Assembly: GCF_001642725.1 (NCBI RefSeq)
Contig: NZ_LSUQ01000004.1
Span: forward strand, 62,001-119,803
Length of the DNA: 57,803 bases
From: Ferroacidibacillus organovorans
Lineage (GTDB): Bacteria; Bacillota; Bacilli; Alicyclobacillales; SLC66
Direction of reading: 5' to 3'
This document shows, one piece after another, positions 274 through 50,109 of this stretch. The notes under the pieces were generated by a model that saw nothing but the letters and a program-made list of their open reading frames with translations, had not been told where the DNA came from and did no database searches. The stretch's first letter is position 1. Every line of letters begins with the position of its first letter. The position numbers were made by a program, and so were the translations under genes.

Positions 274-1293
274 ATGAGCTATATCCGCGAACTTGAACGC
301 GTTTTTGCGGGGCGACTACGGATCAATCACGAGCCTCCAGAAGCGTTCCAGGCCGAATCGTTCGATGCATTGGTACGCGGGAGCACCGTGCGCGATCAGC
401 GCTGTTTTGCCTGGATCGAACACGGGAAAAAGTACTATGTCGCGTATCACGTTTCGCAATTGACGAAAACGGAAGAGACGCTGTTACGCCTTTTGCTGAC
501 GAATCATCAGGACGAAACGCTGGAAAAACCGAGATGGCAAGAGGAGATTCACGCCGCGCTGCGGGAAGCGCCGGAGCCTTTTCCACGCGCGATTCGGATC
601 GAAGATGAAGTTGAAGAAACGCCTGTTCCGTGGAGTTGGCCCGTCTACTTGATTGGCGTGCGGCCTCACGACACACCGAAAGAAGATACGCGTCAAGAAT
701 TGCAGAGCGCGCTTCACTCGCTCGCCGAAGCCTCTTCCGGTGAGTTTTACTTTACATATGACCAGGCGCTTGTCGTGTGCGTTTTTCCAAGGCATGCGGA
801 TGAAGATATGCACAGTCCTAGGGAAACAGCTGAGGCGCTCGTCGATGGTCTGGTATCTGAGTCGTTTATCGATGCGCGCGCGGTCTATAGCGGTGCGGTG
901 CGCAGTTTGCCAGAATTGCTCCTGACCCTTCGGCGCATGCTGTTTGTCGTGATGACCGCTGAGGCGCTCACGCCAGAATCGCGCGTGCTCACGGCCCAGG
1001 GACTCGGCGTCTATGAATTGCTGTTTGGCTTGCGTCCGCACTTGCGACAGGCATATGCGGCGCACACGATCACGCCGTCTGTCACGATGACGCTTGGGGC
1101 AGAGCTTGAGCAGACGGTGATGACGTTTGTGGCATGCGATCTAAACATGAGCGAAACCGCGCGCAAACTCTATCTGCACCGCAACAGCTTGCTGTATCGG
1201 ATTGAGCGCATACGCGAATTGACCGGCTACGACGTTCGTCGGTTCGACGACGCGGTGACGGTGTGGGCGGCTCTTCTCTTGCGTAGACTGTGA
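274..1293 (+). CDS. PucR/CdaR-family transcriptional regulator
   Basis: C-terminal HTH signature NMSETARKLYLHRNSLLYRIERIRELTGYD; RBS GGAGGGTG. Confidence 0.9.
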   Translation: MSYIRELERVFAGRLRINHEPPEAFQAESFDALVRGSTVRDQRCFAWIEHGKKYYVAYHVSQLTKTEETLLRLLLTNHQDETLEKPRWQEEIHAALREAPEPFPRAIRIEDEVEETPVPWSWPVYLIGVRPHDTPKEDTRQELQSALHSLAEASSGEFYFTYDQALVVCVFPRHADEDMHSPRETAEALVDGLVSESFIDARAVYSGAVRSLPELLLTLRRMLFVVMTAEALTPESRVLTAQGLGVYELLFGLRPHLRQAYAAHTITPSVTMTLGAELEQTVMTFVACDLNMSETARKLYLHRNSLLYRIERIRELTGYDVRRFDDAVTVWAALLLRRL

Positions 1294-1434
1294 ACGAATA
1301 TTTTTCGGCGCGCGAACTGCCTAAACATTGGTGTGGAACTTTGTGTAGAGTGCCATATGGTGGGGTGTGGGCAAGTCGGGCTATACTACCGAAAGTAGTG
1401 AAACGCATCGACTTTTTGAAAGGGGCTCACAGCC

Positions 1435-2544
1435 TTGGCAGAAGTAATTTTGAAAAACGTATACAAACGCTATACCGGCAACGTTGTCGCAGTGACCGAT
1501 TTTAATCTTGAAATTGCAGATAAAGAGTTTATCGTCCTGGTTGGCCCATCGGGTTGCGGAAAATCCACGACACTCCGCATGATTGCGGGGCTCGAAGAGA
1601 TCTCGGACGGCGATTTGATGATTGGTCAACGTCGCATGAATGACGTCGCGCCAAAAGATCGCGATATTGCGATGGTATTCCAGAACTACGCGCTCTATCC
1701 GCACATGACGGTGTATCAAAATATGGCGTTTGGGCTCAAACTGCGACGCTTCCCAAAAGCTGAGATTGACAAGCGCGTGCGCGATGCGGCGCAAATCCTC
1801 GATATCACCCACTTGTTGGCGAGAAAACCAAAGGCGCTTTCTGGCGGGCAACGTCAACGCGTCGCGCTGGGACGCGCGATTGTCCGAGAACCACAGGCGT
1901 TTTTGATGGACGAGCCACTTTCAAACCTTGACGCGAAGTTGCGCGTCGCGATGCGCACAGAGATCAGTAAACTTCACAAGCGCTTGCAAACGACGTTCAT
2001 CTATGTCACACACGATCAGACGGAAGCGATGACGATGGGCGATCGCATCGTCGTTATGAAAGACGGTTTTATTCAGCAGGTGGCAACCCCGCAAGAGATC
2101 TACAATCATCCGCGCAATCTGTTTGTGGCTGGATTTATCGGTTCACCTTCCATGAACTTTATCAACGGTCAGGTTGAAGAACAAAACGGAAAACTGCGCT
2201 TTGTAGCGCAAGGACTGTCACTAGAAATCCCGGAGGGACGCCACGAAGCGGTGCGTGCAGCGGGCGCGGTTGGTAAAGAGATGGTGCTCGGCATTCGCCC
2301 AGAACACATCCACGATGAGCCTGTCTACACGGAGACGTATCCGGGTGGCATTTTTGAAGCGGTGATCGAAGTGGTTGAGCATATGGGGTCGGAAATGTAC
2401 TTGATGATGGACCTCAGCGGCCAGCAGGTTACGGGACGGATTGTCGCGCGCAGTGACGTGCACGCTTCAGAAAACGTGAGACTCGTGATGGACATGAGCA
2501 AGATTCACATGTTTGACAAAGAGACGGAACTGTCCATTCTGTGA
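1435..2544 (+). CDS. msmX: Carbohydrate ABC transporter ATP-binding protein (MsmX/MalK/UgpC type)
   Basis: Walker A GPSGCGKS, signature LSGGQRQR, DEPLSNLDAKLR, FVAGFIGSP, C-terminal TOBE region; TTG start after AAGGGG. Confidence 0.9.
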   Translation: MAEVILKNVYKRYTGNVVAVTDFNLEIADKEFIVLVGPSGCGKSTTLRMIAGLEEISDGDLMIGQRRMNDVAPKDRDIAMVFQNYALYPHMTVYQNMAFGLKLRRFPKAEIDKRVRDAAQILDITHLLARKPKALSGGQRQRVALGRAIVREPQAFLMDEPLSNLDAKLRVAMRTEISKLHKRLQTTFIYVTHDQTEAMTMGDRIVVMKDGFIQQVATPQEIYNHPRNLFVAGFIGSPSMNFINGQVEEQNGKLRFVAQGLSLEIPEGRHEAVRAAGAVGKEMVLGIRPEHIHDEPVYTETYPGGIFEAVIEVVEHMGSEMYLMMDLSGQQVTGRIVARSDVHASENVRLVMDMSKIHMFDKETELSIL

Positions 2545-2587
2545 TGACCTTATATCCCCAAGCTTCTGATAGGAAGGGGGCTGCGCG

Positions 2588-3520
2588 ATGAGCGGGTTTG
2601 TCACGGTCGCTCAACTCGTGGAAGAGTTAAATCTTGAATTGATCGGCAGCGGAATCGGTTTAGCGCGCACGATCAACTCAGAGGAGATCAATCGTCCGGG
2701 CCTCGGGCTCGCCGGATTTCTCGTGTATTATCCATCCGATCGCGTGCAGGTGCTGGGGCGCACAGAACTGGCTTTCCTAAGCTCCATCGATGCGATGGAC
2801 GCGCGTGAGCGACTGAAGCGGATCTGTAGTTTTGAGCAGACCCCCTGTATCGTAGTGACGCGCAACCAGGAAATCTCAGATGAACTGCGTGAAGAAGCGG
2901 AACAATACGGCGTTCCGCTTCTTCGGACGCGCCTTTCGACGCCTAAGTTTATTGCTCAGATCACAACCTTTCTCGAACTTCACCTCGCGCCAGAAACGCT
3001 CGTCCATGGTGTCTTGGTGGACGTGTACGGGATCGGCATTTTGATGACCGGGTCAAGTGGCATTGGGAAGAGTGAGACAGCGCTCGAACTGCTCAAAAGA
3101 GGTCATCGCATGGTGGCGGATGACGCGGTGGAAATTCGCCGGATTTCTGAGGACACGCTGGTGGGGATGGCGCCTCCCCTCTTGCAGCATTTGCTTGAGA
3201 TTCGTGGACTCGGCGTACTGAACGCGATGACCTTGTTTGGCGCAGGCGCGATTCGCACGCATAAGAAAATTGAAATGATCATTGAGCTTGAGGCTTGGCA
3301 GGATGATCGCTCGTATGACAGACTCGGACTCGATGAAGACAAGCGGCGCATTCTCGATGTAGATCTTACCTGTCTGATTATCCCTGTGCGACCGGGGCGA
3401 AACCTTGCGATCATTATCGAGGTGGCGGCGATGAATCAGCGCCTCAAACGAATGGGGTACAACGCGGCGCGTGAACTGTCGGAAAAGTTGATGTCCTCGA
3501 TGGACGCGCACGAAGATTAG
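2588..3520 (+). CDS. hprK: HPr kinase/phosphorylase
   Basis: INRPGL, HGVLVDVYGIG, GSSGIGKSETALEL, ADDAV, LEIRGLG, PVRPGRN motifs. Confidence 0.97.
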   Translation: MSGFVTVAQLVEELNLELIGSGIGLARTINSEEINRPGLGLAGFLVYYPSDRVQVLGRTELAFLSSIDAMDARERLKRICSFEQTPCIVVTRNQEISDELREEAEQYGVPLLRTRLSTPKFIAQITTFLELHLAPETLVHGVLVDVYGIGILMTGSSGIGKSETALELLKRGHRMVADDAVEIRRISEDTLVGMAPPLLQHLLEIRGLGVLNAMTLFGAGAIRTHKKIEMIIELEAWQDDRSYDRLGLDEDKRRILDVDLTCLIIPVRPGRNLAIIIEVAAMNQRLKRMGYNAARELSEKLMSSMDAHED

Positions 3521-3614
3521 GTCCTATGTGGTCTAATGCGAAATAAAATAAACGCTTCTTACACTACGCGGTGGGTAAAAACCGACTGGCGGAGACATAC
3601 TGTGCGCGTCGGAG

Positions 3615-4142
3615 GTGGTGGAGACGCGCAAGGTATCGGTCTATCGCTTACCTGAACGTACTGGAAAAGAACCCTGCAATCCCTTGTATCGTCTCTATGA
3701 GACGGTGCCTTTTTTTCGTGTCGTAAGGTCAGTGCTCATCCAGCGAATGGTTCGCGTTTGTCCCAGTTTCTCACTAAAAAATACGATATACCGGCGACTG
3801 CTTGGGGTACAGATCGGTGTGCATACGGCGATCGCGCTTGATGTGACGCTCGATATGCTGAAGCCCGAGTGGATTTCGATTGGCCGAAATTGTGTCATCG
3901 GATACCAGACCACGATACTCACACACGAATACCTCATTCATGAGTATCGATTCGGACCAGTCACGATTGGCGATGAGGTTATGATTGGAGCGAATTCAAC
4001 GATTCTCGCGGGTGTCACGATCGGGAGCGGAAGTGTCATCGGGGCGGGCTCAGTCGTTTCATCCGACGTCCCGCCAGGCGTATTTGCAGCAGGGGTGCCT
4101 GCGCGAATCATTCGCTCATTGACAGCAACGACGCCCGAATGA
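3615..4142 (+). CDS. Hexapeptide-repeat acyltransferase (YvoF-like)
   Basis: Left-handed beta-helix repeats (IGRNCVIG, IGDEVMIGANSTILAGVTIG, GVPAR); lies between hprK and hisZ like B. subtilis yvoF. Confidence 0.85.
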   Translation: MVETRKVSVYRLPERTGKEPCNPLYRLYETVPFFRVVRSVLIQRMVRVCPSFSLKNTIYRRLLGVQIGVHTAIALDVTLDMLKPEWISIGRNCVIGYQTTILTHEYLIHEYRFGPVTIGDEVMIGANSTILAGVTIGSGSVIGAGSVVSSDVPPGVFAAGVPARIIRSLTATTPE

Positions 4143-12131: not shown

Positions 12132-13820
12132 ATGAAGATAAATAAAAAGACGCGCCTGCTGGGTGTCGTCGCATCGGTTACACTGCTCGGCGCGGCACTC
12201 GCTGGCTGCAGCACACAACCGTCTGCAACATCGCAAGCGCCTACCACACCTACCGCTCCTGCGACAACGGGCGCACAACCGGTCTACGGCGGAACGCTAA
12301 ACCTTGATTTGGCGGGCGCTTTCCCACACCTTGACCCAGTCAAGGCGTACGATACGACCTCGTATGAGGCGGTACTTCAGTTTTACAATCAGCTCGTGAC
12401 GTACAAAGGCGCGACGAATACGATTATTCCGAGCTTGGCTTCGCGCTACACGATCAGCCCGAACGGTAAAGTGTATACCTTTTACTTAGCGAATGCGAAG
12501 TTCTGGAATGGTCACCCGGTGACAGCGCAGAGCTTTATCACCGAGTTTGAGCGCGTGTTGAACCCTGTGAACAGCAGCGGCGGCCAAGGGTTTATCGATC
12601 CGTTCATCGCAGGCTCGAACGCGTACTACAGCGGTCACGCCAAGACGATCTCTGGACTGAAATCGCTCAACGGCGGCAAGACGCTCCAAATCACTTTGAC
12701 CCAGCGTGATCCAGTCTTCTTGTATGTGCTCGCGATGCCGTTTTTCTCGGCAGTCGATCCGACCTATATCGCGGGGCACAGCGAGTCGTACATCGATCAC
12801 AACCCAATGGGTACAGGTCCGTTCTATCTTGCGAGCTATCAACCGAACCAACAGTGGGTACTCAAGAAGAACCCGCACTATTTCCAAAAGGGTATCCCTT
12901 ATCTGAATGAGATTGTGTTTACAAACAACTCGTCTCCTTCGGCGGAACTTCTGCACTACAAGCAAGGCTTGACGGGGCTACTCGGCTACAACATCGGCGG
13001 TAACGGCATTCCGTCGCAAGACTATTTGCCGATTGTCATGAGCCCGACGTACAGCAAGCAGGTGTACAAAGTGGTTCAGGTGGCGACTCAGTATATCGGC
13101 CTTAACAACAAGGTCGGCCCGACGGCAAACGTAAAAGTCCGTCGCGCGCTCGAGTACGCGATCAACAAGAACTACCTTGTCAAAGTTTTGGGTGGACGCG
13201 CACTCCCGGCGAACCAGATCATCCCGCCGAGCATGCCTTCTGGCTATGAGGCGAAACTGCCGGCGAATGCGACGTATTCGTACAATCCGGCGCTCGCAAA
13301 GAAACTGCTCGCGCAAGCTGGCTACCCGCACGGCTTTACGACAACGATCTACTGTGACAACTCGAACCCAGACGATCTGCGGATCACTGAAGCGGTGCAG
13401 AGCATGTTGAAGGCAGTCGGCGTGACGGCGAACATTAATCAGTCGTCGTGGGGTACGTTCTTGACCAACAACGAGACGGGCAATCAGCCGATGTTTAACC
13501 TGGCGTGGGTTGAGGATTTCCCGGATCCGTCTGACTTCTTGAACACACTGTTCAATTCCAACCAACGACCGGTTAACAACTCGACGATGTACTCCAATCC
13601 GGCGGTTGACAAACTGCTAAACACTGCAGCAAACATGCCTGCGGGAACAGCGCGTGACAATCTCTACAAGCAAGCGCAAAACATCATCATGTCGCAAGCT
13701 GCGTGGATTCCATACGCGTATCCAGTCTTCACAGCGGCTGTCCAGCCTTGGCTGAAAGGGTACTATCTGAACCCAAATCAGGTCGATCCACTGCAATACG
13801 TTTGGATCGCGAAGCACTAA
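12132..13820 (+). CDS. oppA: Peptide ABC transporter substrate-binding lipoprotein (SBP family 5)
   Basis: Lipobox LAGC; family 5 motifs (LDPV, PSLA, YTFYL..KFWNGHPVTA, GTGPF, VRRALEYAIN). Confidence 0.9.
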   Translation: MKINKKTRLLGVVASVTLLGAALAGCSTQPSATSQAPTTPTAPATTGAQPVYGGTLNLDLAGAFPHLDPVKAYDTTSYEAVLQFYNQLVTYKGATNTIIPSLASRYTISPNGKVYTFYLANAKFWNGHPVTAQSFITEFERVLNPVNSSGGQGFIDPFIAGSNAYYSGHAKTISGLKSLNGGKTLQITLTQRDPVFLYVLAMPFFSAVDPTYIAGHSESYIDHNPMGTGPFYLASYQPNQQWVLKKNPHYFQKGIPYLNEIVFTNNSSPSAELLHYKQGLTGLLGYNIGGNGIPSQDYLPIVMSPTYSKQVYKVVQVATQYIGLNNKVGPTANVKVRRALEYAINKNYLVKVLGGRALPANQIIPPSMPSGYEAKLPANATYSYNPALAKKLLAQAGYPHGFTTTIYCDNSNPDDLRITEAVQSMLKAVGVTANINQSSWGTFLTNNETGNQPMFNLAWVEDFPDPSDFLNTLFNSNQRPVNNSTMYSNPAVDKLLNTAANMPAGTARDNLYKQAQNIIMSQAAWIPYAYPVFTAAVQPWLKGYYLNPNQVDPLQYVWIAKH

Positions 13821-47392: not shown

Positions 47393-48142
47393 TCAAACGT
47401 TCAGCCACGCCGCGAGTTCGCCTTCATCTACTGTGTGACCAACGTAGAATGGGCCGAATTCTGCATAGCGAGCGCTCACTTCATCAAAACGCATTTCATA
47501 GATCAGTTTTTTAAACTCGAGTGGATCTTGCGCGTAGAGCGTGACACCCCACTCCCAGTCGTCAAATCCAATCGATCCCGTAATGATCTGATAGACTCGT
47601 CCGGCGTACGATCTACCGATCATGCCGTGGCTGGTCATAAGTTCAATGCGTTTTTCTTTATCAAGCATATACCAGTTATCATCCGCGTTTCGGCGCTTGT
47701 TCATCGGGTAAAAACAGACGTGCTTTGGCTGCGTACTGAGTTTTGGTTCCAGTCTTCCTTTGAGGCGTGGATCATCTTTCGGATCGGAGCCCGGTTTGGA
47801 TAAATAGCTGCTCAATTCAACGATCGATACATACGAATAGGCAGGAATCAGTTCATCGGAGATCTCCAGTTTTTCAAACTCCGTCTTACACGCGATAAGC
47901 TCTTCCATCGTTTTGCGGAAATGAACGATCAGCAAATCTGCTTTGTGGCCAGCGATCAAATAGACGCCATAGCTTCCATCTTCTCGCCCTTCGATTTCAC
48001 GTTGGCTGCGCGAGTATGCTTGCAGGGATTCGATGCGCTGTTGTCGCATCTCAGGGGGCATGCTTTTCCAGGATGCCCAGTCCACCGTTCGAAAGTCGTG
48101 GTATGCATACCAGCCTTCAATGGTTTGGGTCGGTTCGCTCAT
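47393..48142 (-). CDS. hemQ: Coproheme decarboxylase (HemQ/ChdC)
   Basis: EGWY..HDFR, GHKADL, YSYVSIVELS, FYPMNKRR, NWYML, HGMIGR, GFDDWEWGV, YEMRFDEVSARY. Confidence 0.95.
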   Translation of the reverse strand: MSEPTQTIEGWYAYHDFRTVDWASWKSMPPEMRQQRIESLQAYSRSQREIEGREDGSYGVYLIAGHKADLLIVHFRKTMEELIACKTEFEKLEISDELIPAYSYVSIVELSSYLSKPGSDPKDDPRLKGRLEPKLSTQPKHVCFYPMNKRRNADDNWYMLDKEKRIELMTSHGMIGRSYAGRVYQIITGSIGFDDWEWGVTLYAQDPLEFKKLIYEMRFDEVSARYAEFGPFYVGHTVDEGELAAWLNV

Positions 48143-48224
48143 TGTTGCCGCCTCATTTCCATTCACATTCTATGCGTTCTAAGCGTAGCGCACTTCAGGG
48201 CCCGGGCGCAAATCATTCCATCGA

Positions 48225-49691
48225 TCAGATTTGAAATAACTCACAGAAGGATGCAACGTAACGCGGATCAAAACGCGTTCCAGAAAGCTGTCTGATTTCT
48301 TGAAGAGCGGCCGAATGCGCGACGCCGCGTGTCACGCTCTGTGCATATGTATCGGTGATCGCAACCATCCGCGCCAGCGGCGTAATCTCATCACCCGCGA
48401 GATGAAAGGGAAATCCTGTGCCATCGTACGCTTCATGGTGGTGGAAAATGGCGGTATACACATTTCCGGGGAGCCATTCGACCGTGAGCATCTCAAGGGT
48501 GAAAAACGGGTGTTGCTGGTAGCGTTTCCAGGCATCCATCGAGCGATGAGGATTTTTAATGATCTCAGGCTCGACCATCGTGAGCCCGTAATCAGCGAGC
48601 CTGCTGAGAAAAACGGCAGACGTTTCATCAGCGGCCGTTTCAGGGCAAACTTCGGCGAGCGCTCTCGTGTAAAACGTTCGCACATCGAGCAGATGCGCGA
48701 AATTGGGTTCGATCAGTTCGAGCGCGTCTGTGACGTCCAAGAGGATGACAAACTGTTCAAGCTTTGTCCACTCTTCGGGCGTCAGTGGATAGGTGGGGCG
48801 TTTGTGGGAAGGGACACTCCACGACTCCTGCAAGGTTTGCGCCGTTTGCCACGCCCGCCAGTTGCGCGCACGTCCAAACATCACGAGCGCTTTTTGCAGC
48901 AAACGAAGCGCGAGCGAAGGGTCACCTGCGTGATGCGCCACAATCGCCAAAATTTGCGCCAGGCTGGCGATTTCTTCACGCTCAAATTGGAGGTAACTTC
49001 TCCACACGACGTCGAGCGCGCGTTTTGCTGTTTTCGTAGCGTCATCCAACTGGTTTAGCGCAAAATCGAGTTGTGTTTGCACAGTATAGGCGGGAAGATA
49101 GGCATAATCGCCATACTGGTGCGCTCTTGCGAGATCATCGCTGGCTTTTTCGAATTGATTCAGTTCGAGATGTGCCATGGCGCGGTTTGTATATATCTCA
49201 GGGAGAATGTAATCAAGCTGATGCGCGAGGGCGATTTGCAAACTCTCATTTAAAAAGTGTAAGGATTCGTCCAGTAGGCCGAGTTCGCCGAGCAACATTC
49301 CATAATTACCCAAAAGGGATGCTTGTAATATAAAAGGTATATGAATTTCAGTTTGCAGTAAACTTTCGAGGATGAGACGAGCCTCTTGATTCTTGCCGTT
49401 GCGACGCTCTATGAGTGCTAAGTGCATTTGAAAGCGAATGCGTTGAACGGGGTCGCGACTTAACTCGATCGCCTGAATAAATGCGGATCTTGCATGATCC
49501 ACTGTGCCGAGTTGAACAAATATTTTCCCCAGTTCATCCCATACAGCATCGTTCATGTCGTGAGTATTCGCGCATGCGAGAATGGCTTTATAAGATTCGA
49601 TTGCTGCGTGATAAAATTTAAGAGAAACGTGTCTAGCTGCTTGATTAAATCTATTTTTACATGAACAACAGGGAGGATCGTGTGTCAACAC
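48225..49691 (-). CDS. TPR-repeat protein with C-terminal degenerate HD-GYP domain
   Basis: TPR-like units (WDELGKIFVQLG..DHARSAF.QAIEL, LGNYGMLLGELG, YTNRAMAHLELNQFEKA); C-terminal QHP, HHHEAYDGTGFP..LAGDEI...ARMVAITD, SGTRFDP; RBS AAAGGAGG. Confidence 0.9.
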   Translation of the reverse strand: MLTHDPPCCSCKNRFNQAARHVSLKFYHAAIESYKAILACANTHDMNDAVWDELGKIFVQLGTVDHARSAFIQAIELSRDPVQRIRFQMHLALIERRNGKNQEARLILESLLQTEIHIPFILQASLLGNYGMLLGELGLLDESLHFLNESLQIALAHQLDYILPEIYTNRAMAHLELNQFEKASDDLARAHQYGDYAYLPAYTVQTQLDFALNQLDDATKTAKRALDVVWRSYLQFEREEIASLAQILAIVAHHAGDPSLALRLLQKALVMFGRARNWRAWQTAQTLQESWSVPSHKRPTYPLTPEEWTKLEQFVILLDVTDALELIEPNFAHLLDVRTFYTRALAEVCPETAADETSAVFLSRLADYGLTMVEPEIIKNPHRSMDAWKRYQQHPFFTLEMLTVEWLPGNVYTAIFHHHEAYDGTGFPFHLAGDEITPLARMVAITDTYAQSVTRGVAHSAALQEIRQLSGTRFDPRYVASFCELFQI

Positions 49692-49738
49692 GTGATCCTC
49701 CTTTCAAAATTTTTACTTTTCTCAAGGGAGAAGATAGA

Positions 49739-49882
49739 TTACCAAATCTCACGCCAGCCGTGCGAAGTTGAGGTTGATGTTGACGTTCCTGTTGGAGAAA
49801 TTACGAAGAGGTTGAGTGCAAAAAAACTCGCGCACACCGTAAAAGTGAGCACAGGAAGGCTACGTTTGAAAAATTTGAACAC
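49739..49882 (-). CDS. 47-aa secreted propeptide candidate (not in ORF track)
   Basis: GTG 5 nt after AAGGGA; MFKFFKRSLPVLTFTVCASFFALNLFVISPTGTSTSTSTSHGWREIW; fills the gap between riboswitch and TPR gene. Confidence 0.8.
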   Translation of the reverse strand: MFKFFKRSLPVLTFTVCASFFALNLFVISPTGTSTSTSTSHGWREIW

Positions 49883-49906
49883 AAAAATCCCTTCTTTCGG
49901 TTAGGG

Positions 49907-49990
49907 TTCCGGCAACCCGGCTACCTTGGCGATCTCGCTTTAGGTCCGTGGCTTTGCGCCCTTACTTTTCAGTAAGTTTGCCTAATTAAT
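49907..49990 (-). ncRNA. Cyclic di-GMP-I (GEMM) riboswitch
   Basis: Minus strand GGCAAACUUACU-GAAA-AGUAAGGGCGCAAAGCCACGGACCUAAAGCGAGAUCGCCAAGGUAGCCGGGUUGCCG: P2 with GAAA tetraloop, CGCAAAGC junction, CCUAA receptor, P3. Confidence 0.92.
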
Positions 49991-50109
49991 ATTTAGCAGT
50001 TTTGTTGAGTACTGTCAATGATTTGTTTATAGTAGTTCATGAAGCTGTACGAGGGCTTCACACTCTGCCTTGTATTGATTTTTTAATGGAGGCTTTAGGG
50101 GGAGCATAC

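Follow-up and report, generated by a model that had tools for sequence, protein, structure and literature searches.

A Candidate Signaling Operon of the Alicyclobacillales Combining a c-di-GMP Riboswitch, a Putative Exported Peptide, and a TPR Receptor with a Noncanonical HD-GYP Domain

Introduction

In Bacillota, the choice between a motile and a sessile life is made mainly by two routes, peptide quorum sensing and signaling by the second messenger cyclic di-GMP (c-di-GMP). To our knowledge, direct molecular links between the two are scarce in Gram-positive bacteria. Here, we analyze a locus that would link both routes twice, by an RNA switch acting on peptide output and by a c-di-GMP-type domain on the receptor. 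It lies in a 57,803-nucleotide stretch of Ferroacidibacillus organovorans (order Alicyclobacillales; RefSeq assembly GCF_001642725.1, contig NZ_LSUQ01000004.1, positions 62,001–119,803), hereafter the window, whose own numbering is used throughout. It consists of a c-di-GMP-I (GEMM-I) riboswitch, a small pre-peptide gene, and the gene of a protein with tetratricopeptide repeats (TPR) and a C-terminal HD-GYP-type domain, all on the minus strand. A first-pass annotation, made from the letters of the sequence alone, had proposed these three elements as a peptide quorum-sensing cassette with c-di-GMP turnover or binding as its output.

The closest described systems are those of the RRNPP group (Rap-Phr, NprR-NprX, PlcR-PapR, AimR-AimP, and Rgg-SHP), in which a cytoplasmic TPR receptor is encoded near a small gene for an exported pro-peptide and Asn residues of the receptor groove hold the peptide backbone. 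The locus resembles them in this gene pairing, the C-terminus of the peptide being the predicted ligand, in a TPR domain that superposes on peptide-bound Rap and NprR (Z 22.2–23.6, root-mean-square deviation [rmsd] 3.5–4.5 over ~285 residues), and in the conserved Asn residues that line the modeled groove. It differs from them in that the receptor has neither an N-terminal helix-turn-helix (HTH) nor a Rap-type three-helix bundle, its output domain being C-terminal and of the HD-GYP type. The peptide gene also stands upstream in the operon, is riboswitch-gated, and is usually parted from the receptor by a kinase gene, and no sequence-family match to the RRNPP group was found in Pfam or NCBIfam. 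Judged from sequence and models, the cassette appears to be RRNPP-like in the way it works, yet its effector is not of the kind that defines membership.

For each of its other components, the locus has known counterparts. The receptor agrees in C-terminal fold and Pfam family with the HD-GYP proteins (RpfG, PmGH, PA4781, and the noncatalytic DvhD) and has the HHE and G(Y/F)P motifs; it differs from them by a TPR sensor in place of REC or PAS. RpfG couples a cell-cell signal, the diffusible signal factor (DSF), to an HD-GYP domain. The riboswitch belongs to the same aptamer family as Vc2, Cd1, and Bc1/Bc2 and, like them, occupies the leader of c-di-GMP-linked genes; such aptamers are known upstream of GGDEF, EAL, and HD-GYP genes. 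Unlike in these cases, the direct target here is a pro-peptide of 47–73 codons, and the expression platform appears to be translational and pseudoknot-like, using the 3′ tail of the aptamer and no terminator. Finally, the kinase found at most related loci resembles the cores of the DesK/LiaS/NarQ class, with a DesK-type dimerization/histidine-phosphotransfer plus catalytic core at 24 of 27 loci; unlike DesK, LiaS, and NarQ, it is devoid of any membrane or sensor domain, and it is missing from the copy in the window.

We interpret the locus of the window as a derived, kinase-less copy of a conserved operon made of the riboswitch, an exported pro-peptide, usually a HisKA_3 kinase, and a TPR receptor with a noncanonical HD-GYP domain. 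On the evidence presented below, we give this interpretation about an even chance.

Organization of the Locus and Its Conservation in the Order

The Rfam covariance model RF01051 identifies the aptamer at 49908–49992, scoring 83.7 bits where 35 is the gathering score, with E 4.7e-15 and a match to model positions 1–87 of 87; at this place a GEMM-I riboswitch had been annotated at 49907–49990. It is followed by a 47-codon open reading frame (ORF) starting with GTG (49739–49882) and, after a spacer of 47 nt (49692–49738), by the gene of the 488-aa receptor (48225–49691), which also starts with GTG, behind GAAAGGAGGA and its strong Shine-Dalgarno sequence GGAGG. Both the export-type architecture of the 47-aa product and the combination of TPR repeats with a C-terminal HD-GYP-like domain in the receptor were recovered by our analyses, as detailed below. 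So was the absence of a strong terminator between the elements: a terminator scan of the 3-kb region found none between the aptamer, the small ORF, and the receptor. The sole minus-strand match (49502–49483) falls within the receptor ORF, and the matches total 3, compared with 3.3 expected from shuffles. One public gene call starts the receptor at Met46 (443 aa), the 488-aa form being likewise on record; we favor the latter, because the GTG at 49691 is preceded by the strong GGAGG and homologues align from residue 12–17.

We surveyed 64 genomes of the order with a profile of the TPR half of the receptor (E ≤ 1e-30), scanned the loci with Rfam, and read their ORFs. This retrieved 41 receptor copies in 35 of the 64 genomes and 20 of 26 genera. 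Four copies (in G003, G060, G017, and G058) are cut by contig ends and not assessable. Among the remaining 37, 27 show an aptamer of the c-di-GMP-I clan, a small signal-peptide-like ORF, and the receptor in line on one strand, and in all 27 the small ORF encodes a basic N-terminus and a hydrophobic core. Most of the assessable receptor copies do therefore have the adjacent peptide ORF whose absence would have spoken against the cassette first proposed, and the upstream position of the peptide, then taken as an oddity, is the rule in this receptor family. Source names of homologues are Alicyclobacillus and Ferroacidibacillus, and for the peptide also Sulfobacillus; a wider locus search in genome contigs returned solely an unrelated HD-GYP match in Desulfobacula.

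The three elements are, on the other hand, not the full cassette. In 24 of the 27 complete copies, a fourth component, a kinase gene, lies between peptide and receptor. The kinase, of ~220 aa, is made of HisKA_3 and HATPase_c only, with no sensor domain, and matches the catalytic core of DesK (E 4e-18) as well as the cores of NarQ, LiaS, and MctS. In the nine loci with coordinates read (L004, L007, L008, L009, L011, L012, L015, L024, and the divergent L025), the kinase and receptor genes overlap by 4–8 nt or are at most 15 nt apart. The kinase is lacking in three copies: that of the window, the orthologous copy of a congeneric genome (G001), and a copy from a different family (G040). Since the nearest orthologous loci (L006, L011, and L010, with hemQ downstream) do have the kinase, the form in the window is derived. 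The same genome harbors a complete paralogous operon on contig C23, with riboswitch, 73-aa peptide, kinase, and a receptor 28% identical to that of the window, and a related kinase together with a NarL-type regulator on contig C19.

A Candidate Translational Riboswitch Controlling the Pre-Peptide

In 15 of the first 15 loci, the 3′ end of the aptamer is 19–30 nt away from the peptide start codon, and there is therefore no room for a terminator. The small ORF of the window has a Shine-Dalgarno sequence, AAGGGA (49888–49893), 5 nt upstream of its GTG. Alignment of 27 leaders points to an expression platform (49888–49911) made of two short helices. In helix S1, CGG of the aptamer 3′ tail (49909–49911) pairs with CCG (49898–49900); it is paired in 81 of 81 alignment cells, with compensatory changes at two of the three pairs, where four sequences have UA or AU for GC. 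In helix S2, the anti-Shine-Dalgarno CCCU (49903–49906) pairs with AGGG (49889–49892) of the Shine-Dalgarno sequence, and 82% of cells are paired. Taken together, S1 and S2 are paired in 90.2% of cells, compared with 36–60% when the partners are slid, and none of 500 shuffles matched the covariation score, figures that overstate the case somewhat, the sequences being related and the structure derived from the same sequences. The strands follow one another as in an H-type pseudoknot, in which the ribosome-binding site would be buried and bases beside the ligand pocket would be used.

As the aptamer adjoins the peptide start and a covarying fold holds the Shine-Dalgarno sequence, the switch is predicted to act on translation of the peptide. 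The peptide would also be its primary target, because the downstream genes have their own ribosome-binding sites. The c-di-GMP control that the first-pass annotation had extended to the whole unit is thus founded on a genuine aptamer, its primary effect being probably on peptide translation rather than on the unit as a whole. Energy folds of the leader, with the aptamer enforced or left free, did not separate ON and OFF states, and the leader of the window had a z-score of −1.42. An anti-anti-Shine-Dalgarno pairing (GGGUU/AACCC), present at some loci and not family-wide, was dropped. At four loci (L009, L015, L018, and L064), the best-scoring aptamer is the c-di-GMP-I-GGC variant RF03167 (65.8–72.5 bits) and not RF01051.

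The Pre-Peptide Family

The product of the small ORF has a basic N-terminus, a hydrophobic stretch of ~21 residues, a Ser/Thr linker, and the C-terminal octapeptide SHGWREIW, the tail reading TSTSTSTSHGWREIW. Relative to its orthologue in G001, it shows 14 synonymous and 4 nonsynonymous changes over 46 codons, a ratio of nonsynonymous to synonymous substitution rates (dN/dS) of 0.065, the receptor having a value of 0.092. Purifying selection acts on the small ORF, which is a conserved gene. A profile of 16 peptides run on all ORFs of the genome returned two significant matches, with E 3.5e-29 and 1.8e-8, the latter being the peptide of the window; both stand behind a riboswitch and ahead of a receptor. 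In a database of 5.8 billion clusters, the family profile matched 29 clusters, all “hypothetical” or unnamed, and no Pfam or NCBIfam family matched these peptides. The exact 47-aa sequence is absent from a collection of 15 billion proteins in which the receptor sequence is present, so that the small gene appears to be unannotated; its absence illustrates how such systems evade both annotation and adjacency-based detectors.

Most peptides of the family appear to carry Sec-type signal features. An AxA-type site, mostly PAFA, follows the hydrophobic core in 13 of 16 aligned peptides, and the long forms have in common a conserved pro-region rich in Ser, Thr, and Gly. Most peptides end with (H/P)DG(W/Y/F)R and a variable hydrophobic tail of three to five residues (EIW, ELW, MFW, VIW, TAL, LVVE, PIVV, PIWD, and others). 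The peptide of the window is a short form, devoid of the pro-region and of a clear AxA site and ending with SHGWREIW. A 75-codon ORF elsewhere in the genome (contig C8, 80653–80880, minus strand) has a similar signal peptide (…PPAFAYIVRT…) and a weak match to the peptide profile (E 0.13); on that strand, it lies ~4 kb downstream of a further c-di-GMP aptamer.

The peptide might alternatively be a small protein with an independent extracellular or membrane role, for instance in the matrix, at the surface, or as an antimicrobial, switched by c-di-GMP, adjacency to the receptor reflecting co-regulation and the TPR domain binding another partner. c-di-GMP riboswitches commonly precede secreted or surface proteins, as one does in this genome with a 255-aa exported protein; the peptide of the window, lacking a clear AxA site, may stay membrane-anchored, and conservation extends over the entire pro-region of the long forms. 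That peptide and receptor are paired in 27 of 37 copies, and in two paralogous operons of one genome, is not what this explanation would predict. Neither are the specificity of the predicted complex relative to controls and the conservation of the groove Asn residues, both described below, and we hold it to be very unlikely.

The TPR Domain and Its Predicted Peptide Ligand

The AlphaFold2 (AF2) model of the receptor (pLDDT 89.8, pTM 0.87) is all-helical, with helices from residue 8 and a TPR superhelix of about seven repeats reaching residue ~297 (residues 8–297, 48801–49670), followed by the HD-GYP domain. Pfam detects TPR_2, TPR_12, and TPR_8 (44–45 bits each), several TPR families covering residues 44–266. 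There is no hydrophobic stretch at the N-terminus, and the receptor is predicted to be cytoplasmic. With the TPR beginning at residue 8 and HD_5 at the C-terminus as the sole other domain, no N-terminal HTH or Rap-type bundle is present. A search of 1.8 billion proteins with the TPR-half profile retrieved ~40 full-length representatives of 480–520 residues, past which only giant generic TPR proteins were found among the matches listed; no HTH-fused form occurs among the best 150 matches.

Realigned with VIA-align, the TPR domain superposes on the peptide-bound Rap protein of phage phi3T (Z 23.6, with an rmsd of 3.8 across 286 residues), RapJ-PhrC (22.6), RapF-PhrF (22.4), and NprR-NprX (22.2). 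We co-folded the full receptor with residues 18–47 of the peptide, each with its own alignment, together with three controls. The ipSAE value was 0.76 (0.77, 0.72, and 0.76 in separate runs), compared with 0.02 for the best control; in calibration, 116 of 157 solved complexes attained the mark, as did 2 of 215 mismatched pairs. The runs share at least 56% of contacts, with a partner pLDDT of 36–44. On the peptide side, the confident contacts are confined to residues 40–47 (SHGWREIW), and on the receptor side to the concave TPR face. Among the residues contacted there are N129 and N169, either of which is found in 16 of 17 family members. The model thus supports binding of the C-terminal octapeptide in the TPR groove, where a co-fold with an HGWREIW-type fragment had been suggested as a check, and the fragment is predicted to lie there.

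A second check suggested at the outset was co-variation of peptide tails and receptor pockets. The three receptors paired with “…PIVV(E)” peptide tails have N128, D132, and W135 in common (3/3). All three come from one genus, so that this match is not independent evidence.

An alternative is a cell-autonomous relay: the TPR domain would bind the C-terminus of the pre-peptide in the cytoplasm before export, the peptide would do no more than pass the c-di-GMP reading of the riboswitch on to the receptor or kinase, export would clear it, and no signal would pass between cells. The riboswitch is predicted to act directly on peptide translation, and peptide and receptor would come from one transcript; the peptide is also conserved beyond usual pheromones, and the co-fold works with the unprocessed C-terminal 30-mer. 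A weak NCBIfam match of the receptor to the TPR secretion chaperone LcrH_SycD (E 0.011, far below cut-off) points the same way. Such a relay is less easily reconciled with the conserved Sec-type signal, with AxA in 13 of 16 peptides, which suggests selection on the exported form, or with a tail that, after the DGxR motif, varies by lineage as pheromone specificity does. We consider it distinctly improbable.

With regard to import of a mature peptide, the genome has eight SBP_bac_5 (OppA-type) genes, one of them in the window, a finding that is permissive only. The gene in the window, for an OppA/DppA-type solute-binding protein (12420–13565, plus strand, SBP_bac_5 264 bits), is located ~35 kb from the cassette.

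A Noncanonical HD-GYP Domain

The C-terminal domain (residues 305–488, 48228–48779) is matched by HD_5 (PF13487) over residues 364–477, at 57.8 bits for a cut-off of 27.2 and over profile positions 47–169 of 170. Its best fold matches include DvhD in the c-di-GMP-bound form (9rbz, Z 21.9), PmGH (4mcw, Z 20.6, rmsd 2.4 over 172 residues), and PA4781 (Z 20.4), to which it is 27% identical. We located its motifs by a residue alignment with V-cGAP3 (5z7c) and PA4781 (4r8z) and by an alignment of 17 family members; the metal ligands are presumably those of the PmGH numbering. The HD dyad reads AD (A366-D367), and the first His is replaced by Asp (D336). Both changes are family features: all 17 aligned members have Ala, Cys, or Val in place of the dyad His (consensus RFADYGLT), and nearly all have Asp for the first His. 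H394, H418-H419-E420, D367, and mostly D447 are retained in the family. The GYP motif is GFP in the receptor of the window and GFP or GYP in most members, L006 and L025 being the exceptions.

In other HD-GYP enzymes, loss of the dyad His abolishes activity. Hydrolysis by the receptor is doubtful because the dyad reads AD family-wide, and normal c-di-GMP hydrolysis appears the less likely outcome. As regards the “turnover or binding” of the first proposal, binding is retained, and turnover would be the less likely half. According to a 2026 report (PMC13090378), DvhD's HD-GYP domain, which is without HD and HH, binds c-di-GMP and does not hydrolyze it, and the HD motif of PmGH coordinates iron; DvhD is thereby a precedent for an HD-GYP domain as a pure c-di-GMP receptor. 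The domain studied here, with HD changed to AD and the first His to Asp, looks intermediate between the active enzymes and DvhD, in which HD and HH are both lost.

A version along the lines of the first-pass annotation keeps the same sensing and makes the domain an active, peptide-regulated c-di-GMP phosphodiesterase, whose hydrolysis would be the output and would feed back on the riboswitch, the kinase being an accessory elsewhere. An HD_5 score well above cut-off, a fold near those of the active enzymes PmGH and PA4781, and the retention of HHE, H394, D367, and D447 are consistent with it. The near-invariant D336 also suggests a conserved, perhaps carboxylate-richer metal site, and 3 of 27 copies, among them that of the window, have no adjoining kinase. 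Replacement of the dyad His in every aligned member, loss of the first His, and the behavior reported (PMC13090378) for DvhD, which binds but does not cleave c-di-GMP without these ligands, argue against it, and we regard it as unlikely.

Proposed Mode of Action

Under the operon interpretation, c-di-GMP would set the amount of pre-peptide translated. The pro-peptide would be exported and trimmed, and a C-terminal fragment, about SHGWREIW here, would return through an Opp-type importer and bind in the TPR groove, as in receptors of the Rap and NprR type. Rather than hydrolyzing c-di-GMP in the normal way, the HD-GYP-like domain would be an output that binds c-di-GMP or a partner. The receptor would, in most genomes, supply the sensor that the adjoining kinase lacks, and the kinase would signal on to a NarL-type regulator; the sensor-less kinase is a likely output of the usual cassette. 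The receptor of the window might work by itself or with the kinase that the complete paralogous operon encodes on another contig. Export, processing, Opp-dependent reimport, and the link to cell density are steps that we infer.

Several observations weigh against this interpretation. The layout is incomplete in 10 of the 37 assessable copies. Two of them (G033 and G062) have kinase and receptor with neither riboswitch nor peptide; one (contig C56 of G053) is a receptor alone; five (G028, G034, G063, G047, and G049) form a divergent branch without a riboswitch in cis; and in two from one genus (G014 and G007), the variant aptamer RF03167, the kinase, and the TPR protein were seen and no peptide. 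The kinase, central to the proposed output, is missing from the copy in the window. The peptides of the window and of G001 are without the AxA site seen in 13 of 16 relatives, which makes cleavage of the window's peptide less certain. The pro-region of the long peptides is conserved about as much as, or more than, the receptors, a level that seems unusual for pheromone precursors.

Other difficulties concern the receptor. In VIA-align, the unrelated peptide-binding TPR proteins TSK (Z 25.5), APPBP2 (25.2), and LGN (~23) are level with or above Rap. In fold, the domain is accordingly a TPR superhelix of the peptide-binding kind; it superposes on peptide-bound Rap and NprR (Z 22–23.6) and is compatible with RRNPP receptors and not specific to them, because other peptide-binding TPR proteins score as high. 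The best 50 Foldseek matches are generic TPR and HD-GYP entries with no RRNPP protein among them, the RRNPP entries having surfaced only upon realignment by VIA-align. No RRNPP receptor family is matched in Pfam or NCBIfam at E ≤ 0.1, the RRNPP families being themselves very divergent. The co-fold score may stem from likeness to solved Rap and NprR complexes, and the alignments used for it were of our own making. Finally, D336, D367, H394, H418, and H419 are nearly invariant, and for this reason a metal site, hence some catalysis, may survive.

A bolder proposal is that the cassette represents a new class of Gram-positive pheromone system, with a precursor whose production is set by a c-di-GMP riboswitch at its ribosome-binding site and a pseudo-enzymatic HD-GYP receptor that reads c-di-GMP and serves as the detachable sensor of a sensor-less kinase. 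We advance it tentatively and think it rather doubtful. If true, the cassette would detect when a given cell density coincides with a given state of the second messenger. More generally, the locus offers a testable case of a riboswitch controlling a signaling peptide, of a TPR pheromone receptor with an output other than DNA binding, and of a kinase perhaps borrowing a separate sensor. The hosts are mine-water acidophiles and spoilage-related Alicyclobacillus, in which biofilm control is of practical weight.

Comparison with Published Surveys

That no described system with this layout was known to the first-pass annotation is in line with our literature search: publications on RRNPP systems with HD-GYP, on c-di-GMP in Alicyclobacillus and Sulfobacillus, on riboswitches of TPR-HD-GYP genes, and on degenerate HD-GYP domains yielded no description of the cassette. 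The public names of the proteins are generic. A detector based on adjacency would miss most copies. The main text of the RRNPP_detector paper mentions no HD domain, c-di-GMP, riboswitch, or histidine kinase, and the named family member QSO47654.1 is not among the entries listed in the accessible part of its supplement. That part does contain Alicyclobacillus candidates, most of those listed having HTH matches or shorter receptors. One of them, QSO52092.1 of Alicyclobacillus curvatus, is of family-like length (~472 aa) and 26% identical to NprR. The RRNPPA structural-phylogeny paper mentions neither HD-GYP nor c-di-GMP nor Alicyclobacillales or Alicyclobacillus.

Surroundings of the Cassette and Other Features

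A weak promoter-like site, read by eye from the letters, may precede the cassette (49990–50018, minus strand). It consists of TTGACA (50013–50018), a 17-nt spacer, and TAAATA (49990–49995), and would place the transcript start at the 5′ edge of the aptamer core. The site is not among the matches of a consensus promoter scan, because the scan demands T at position 6 of the −10 hexamer. On the other side, hemQ/chdC (coproheme decarboxylase; 47393–48166, minus strand) lies 58 nt 3′ of the receptor, with matches to Pfam Chlor_dismutase (2.3e-59) and NCBIfam NF008913 (344 bits for a cut-off of 253). As it is also found 3′ of the receptor in L003, L006, L010, and L011, it probably marks the orthologous position of the cassette, and its membership in the cassette itself is unlikely.

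DNA nearly identical to 48100–50100 occurs in metagenome contigs labeled mine drainage (share 0.77) and mine tailings (0.50). These contigs differ from the window solely at 49706 and 49721, both in the peptide-receptor spacer. No RNA data set is listed as containing the stretch, and two metatranscriptome runs, from a study containing the DNA, had no match to it, which has no bearing on expression.

Some related loci show further arrangements. In genus g7 (L064, reverse strand 448–3000; L018), a kinase-like ORF of 279 codons comes after an RF03167 aptamer, with no peptide ORF seen, and next to it stands the gene of a 512-aa TPR protein, of which only the TPR part aligned to the query. The divergent locus L025, without riboswitch, has a 50-aa signal-peptide ORF (472–624, minus strand) on the opposite strand downstream, matched by the peptide profile (E 4.1e-6), and a NarL-type regulator 3′ of the receptor (2984–3727, plus strand). 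In G033, G062, and G037, the gene 3′ of the receptor begins like LuxS, the autoinducer-2 (AI-2) synthase, a likeness recognized by eye (L013, 2924–3388; L051, reverse strand, 3012–3515; L061, 2980–3483).

The F. organovorans genome has eight c-di-GMP-I aptamers, two of them in the cassettes. The others (contigs C3, C2, C8, C23, and C40; loci L028 and L030–L034) head diverse genes. Behind them are encoded two GAF-GGDEF-EAL proteins, a FapA-like protein accompanied by a receiver protein, a protein made of an OmpR-type DNA-binding domain only, and the 255-aa exported protein mentioned above, which belongs to no known family. Another aptamer precedes a pair of SinI-like and SinR-like genes (contig C3, 48356–48448), where it would link c-di-GMP directly to the matrix switch. 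The window itself also contains a cobalamin riboswitch aptamer (RF00174, 38561–38749, plus strand, 95.1 bits, full model).

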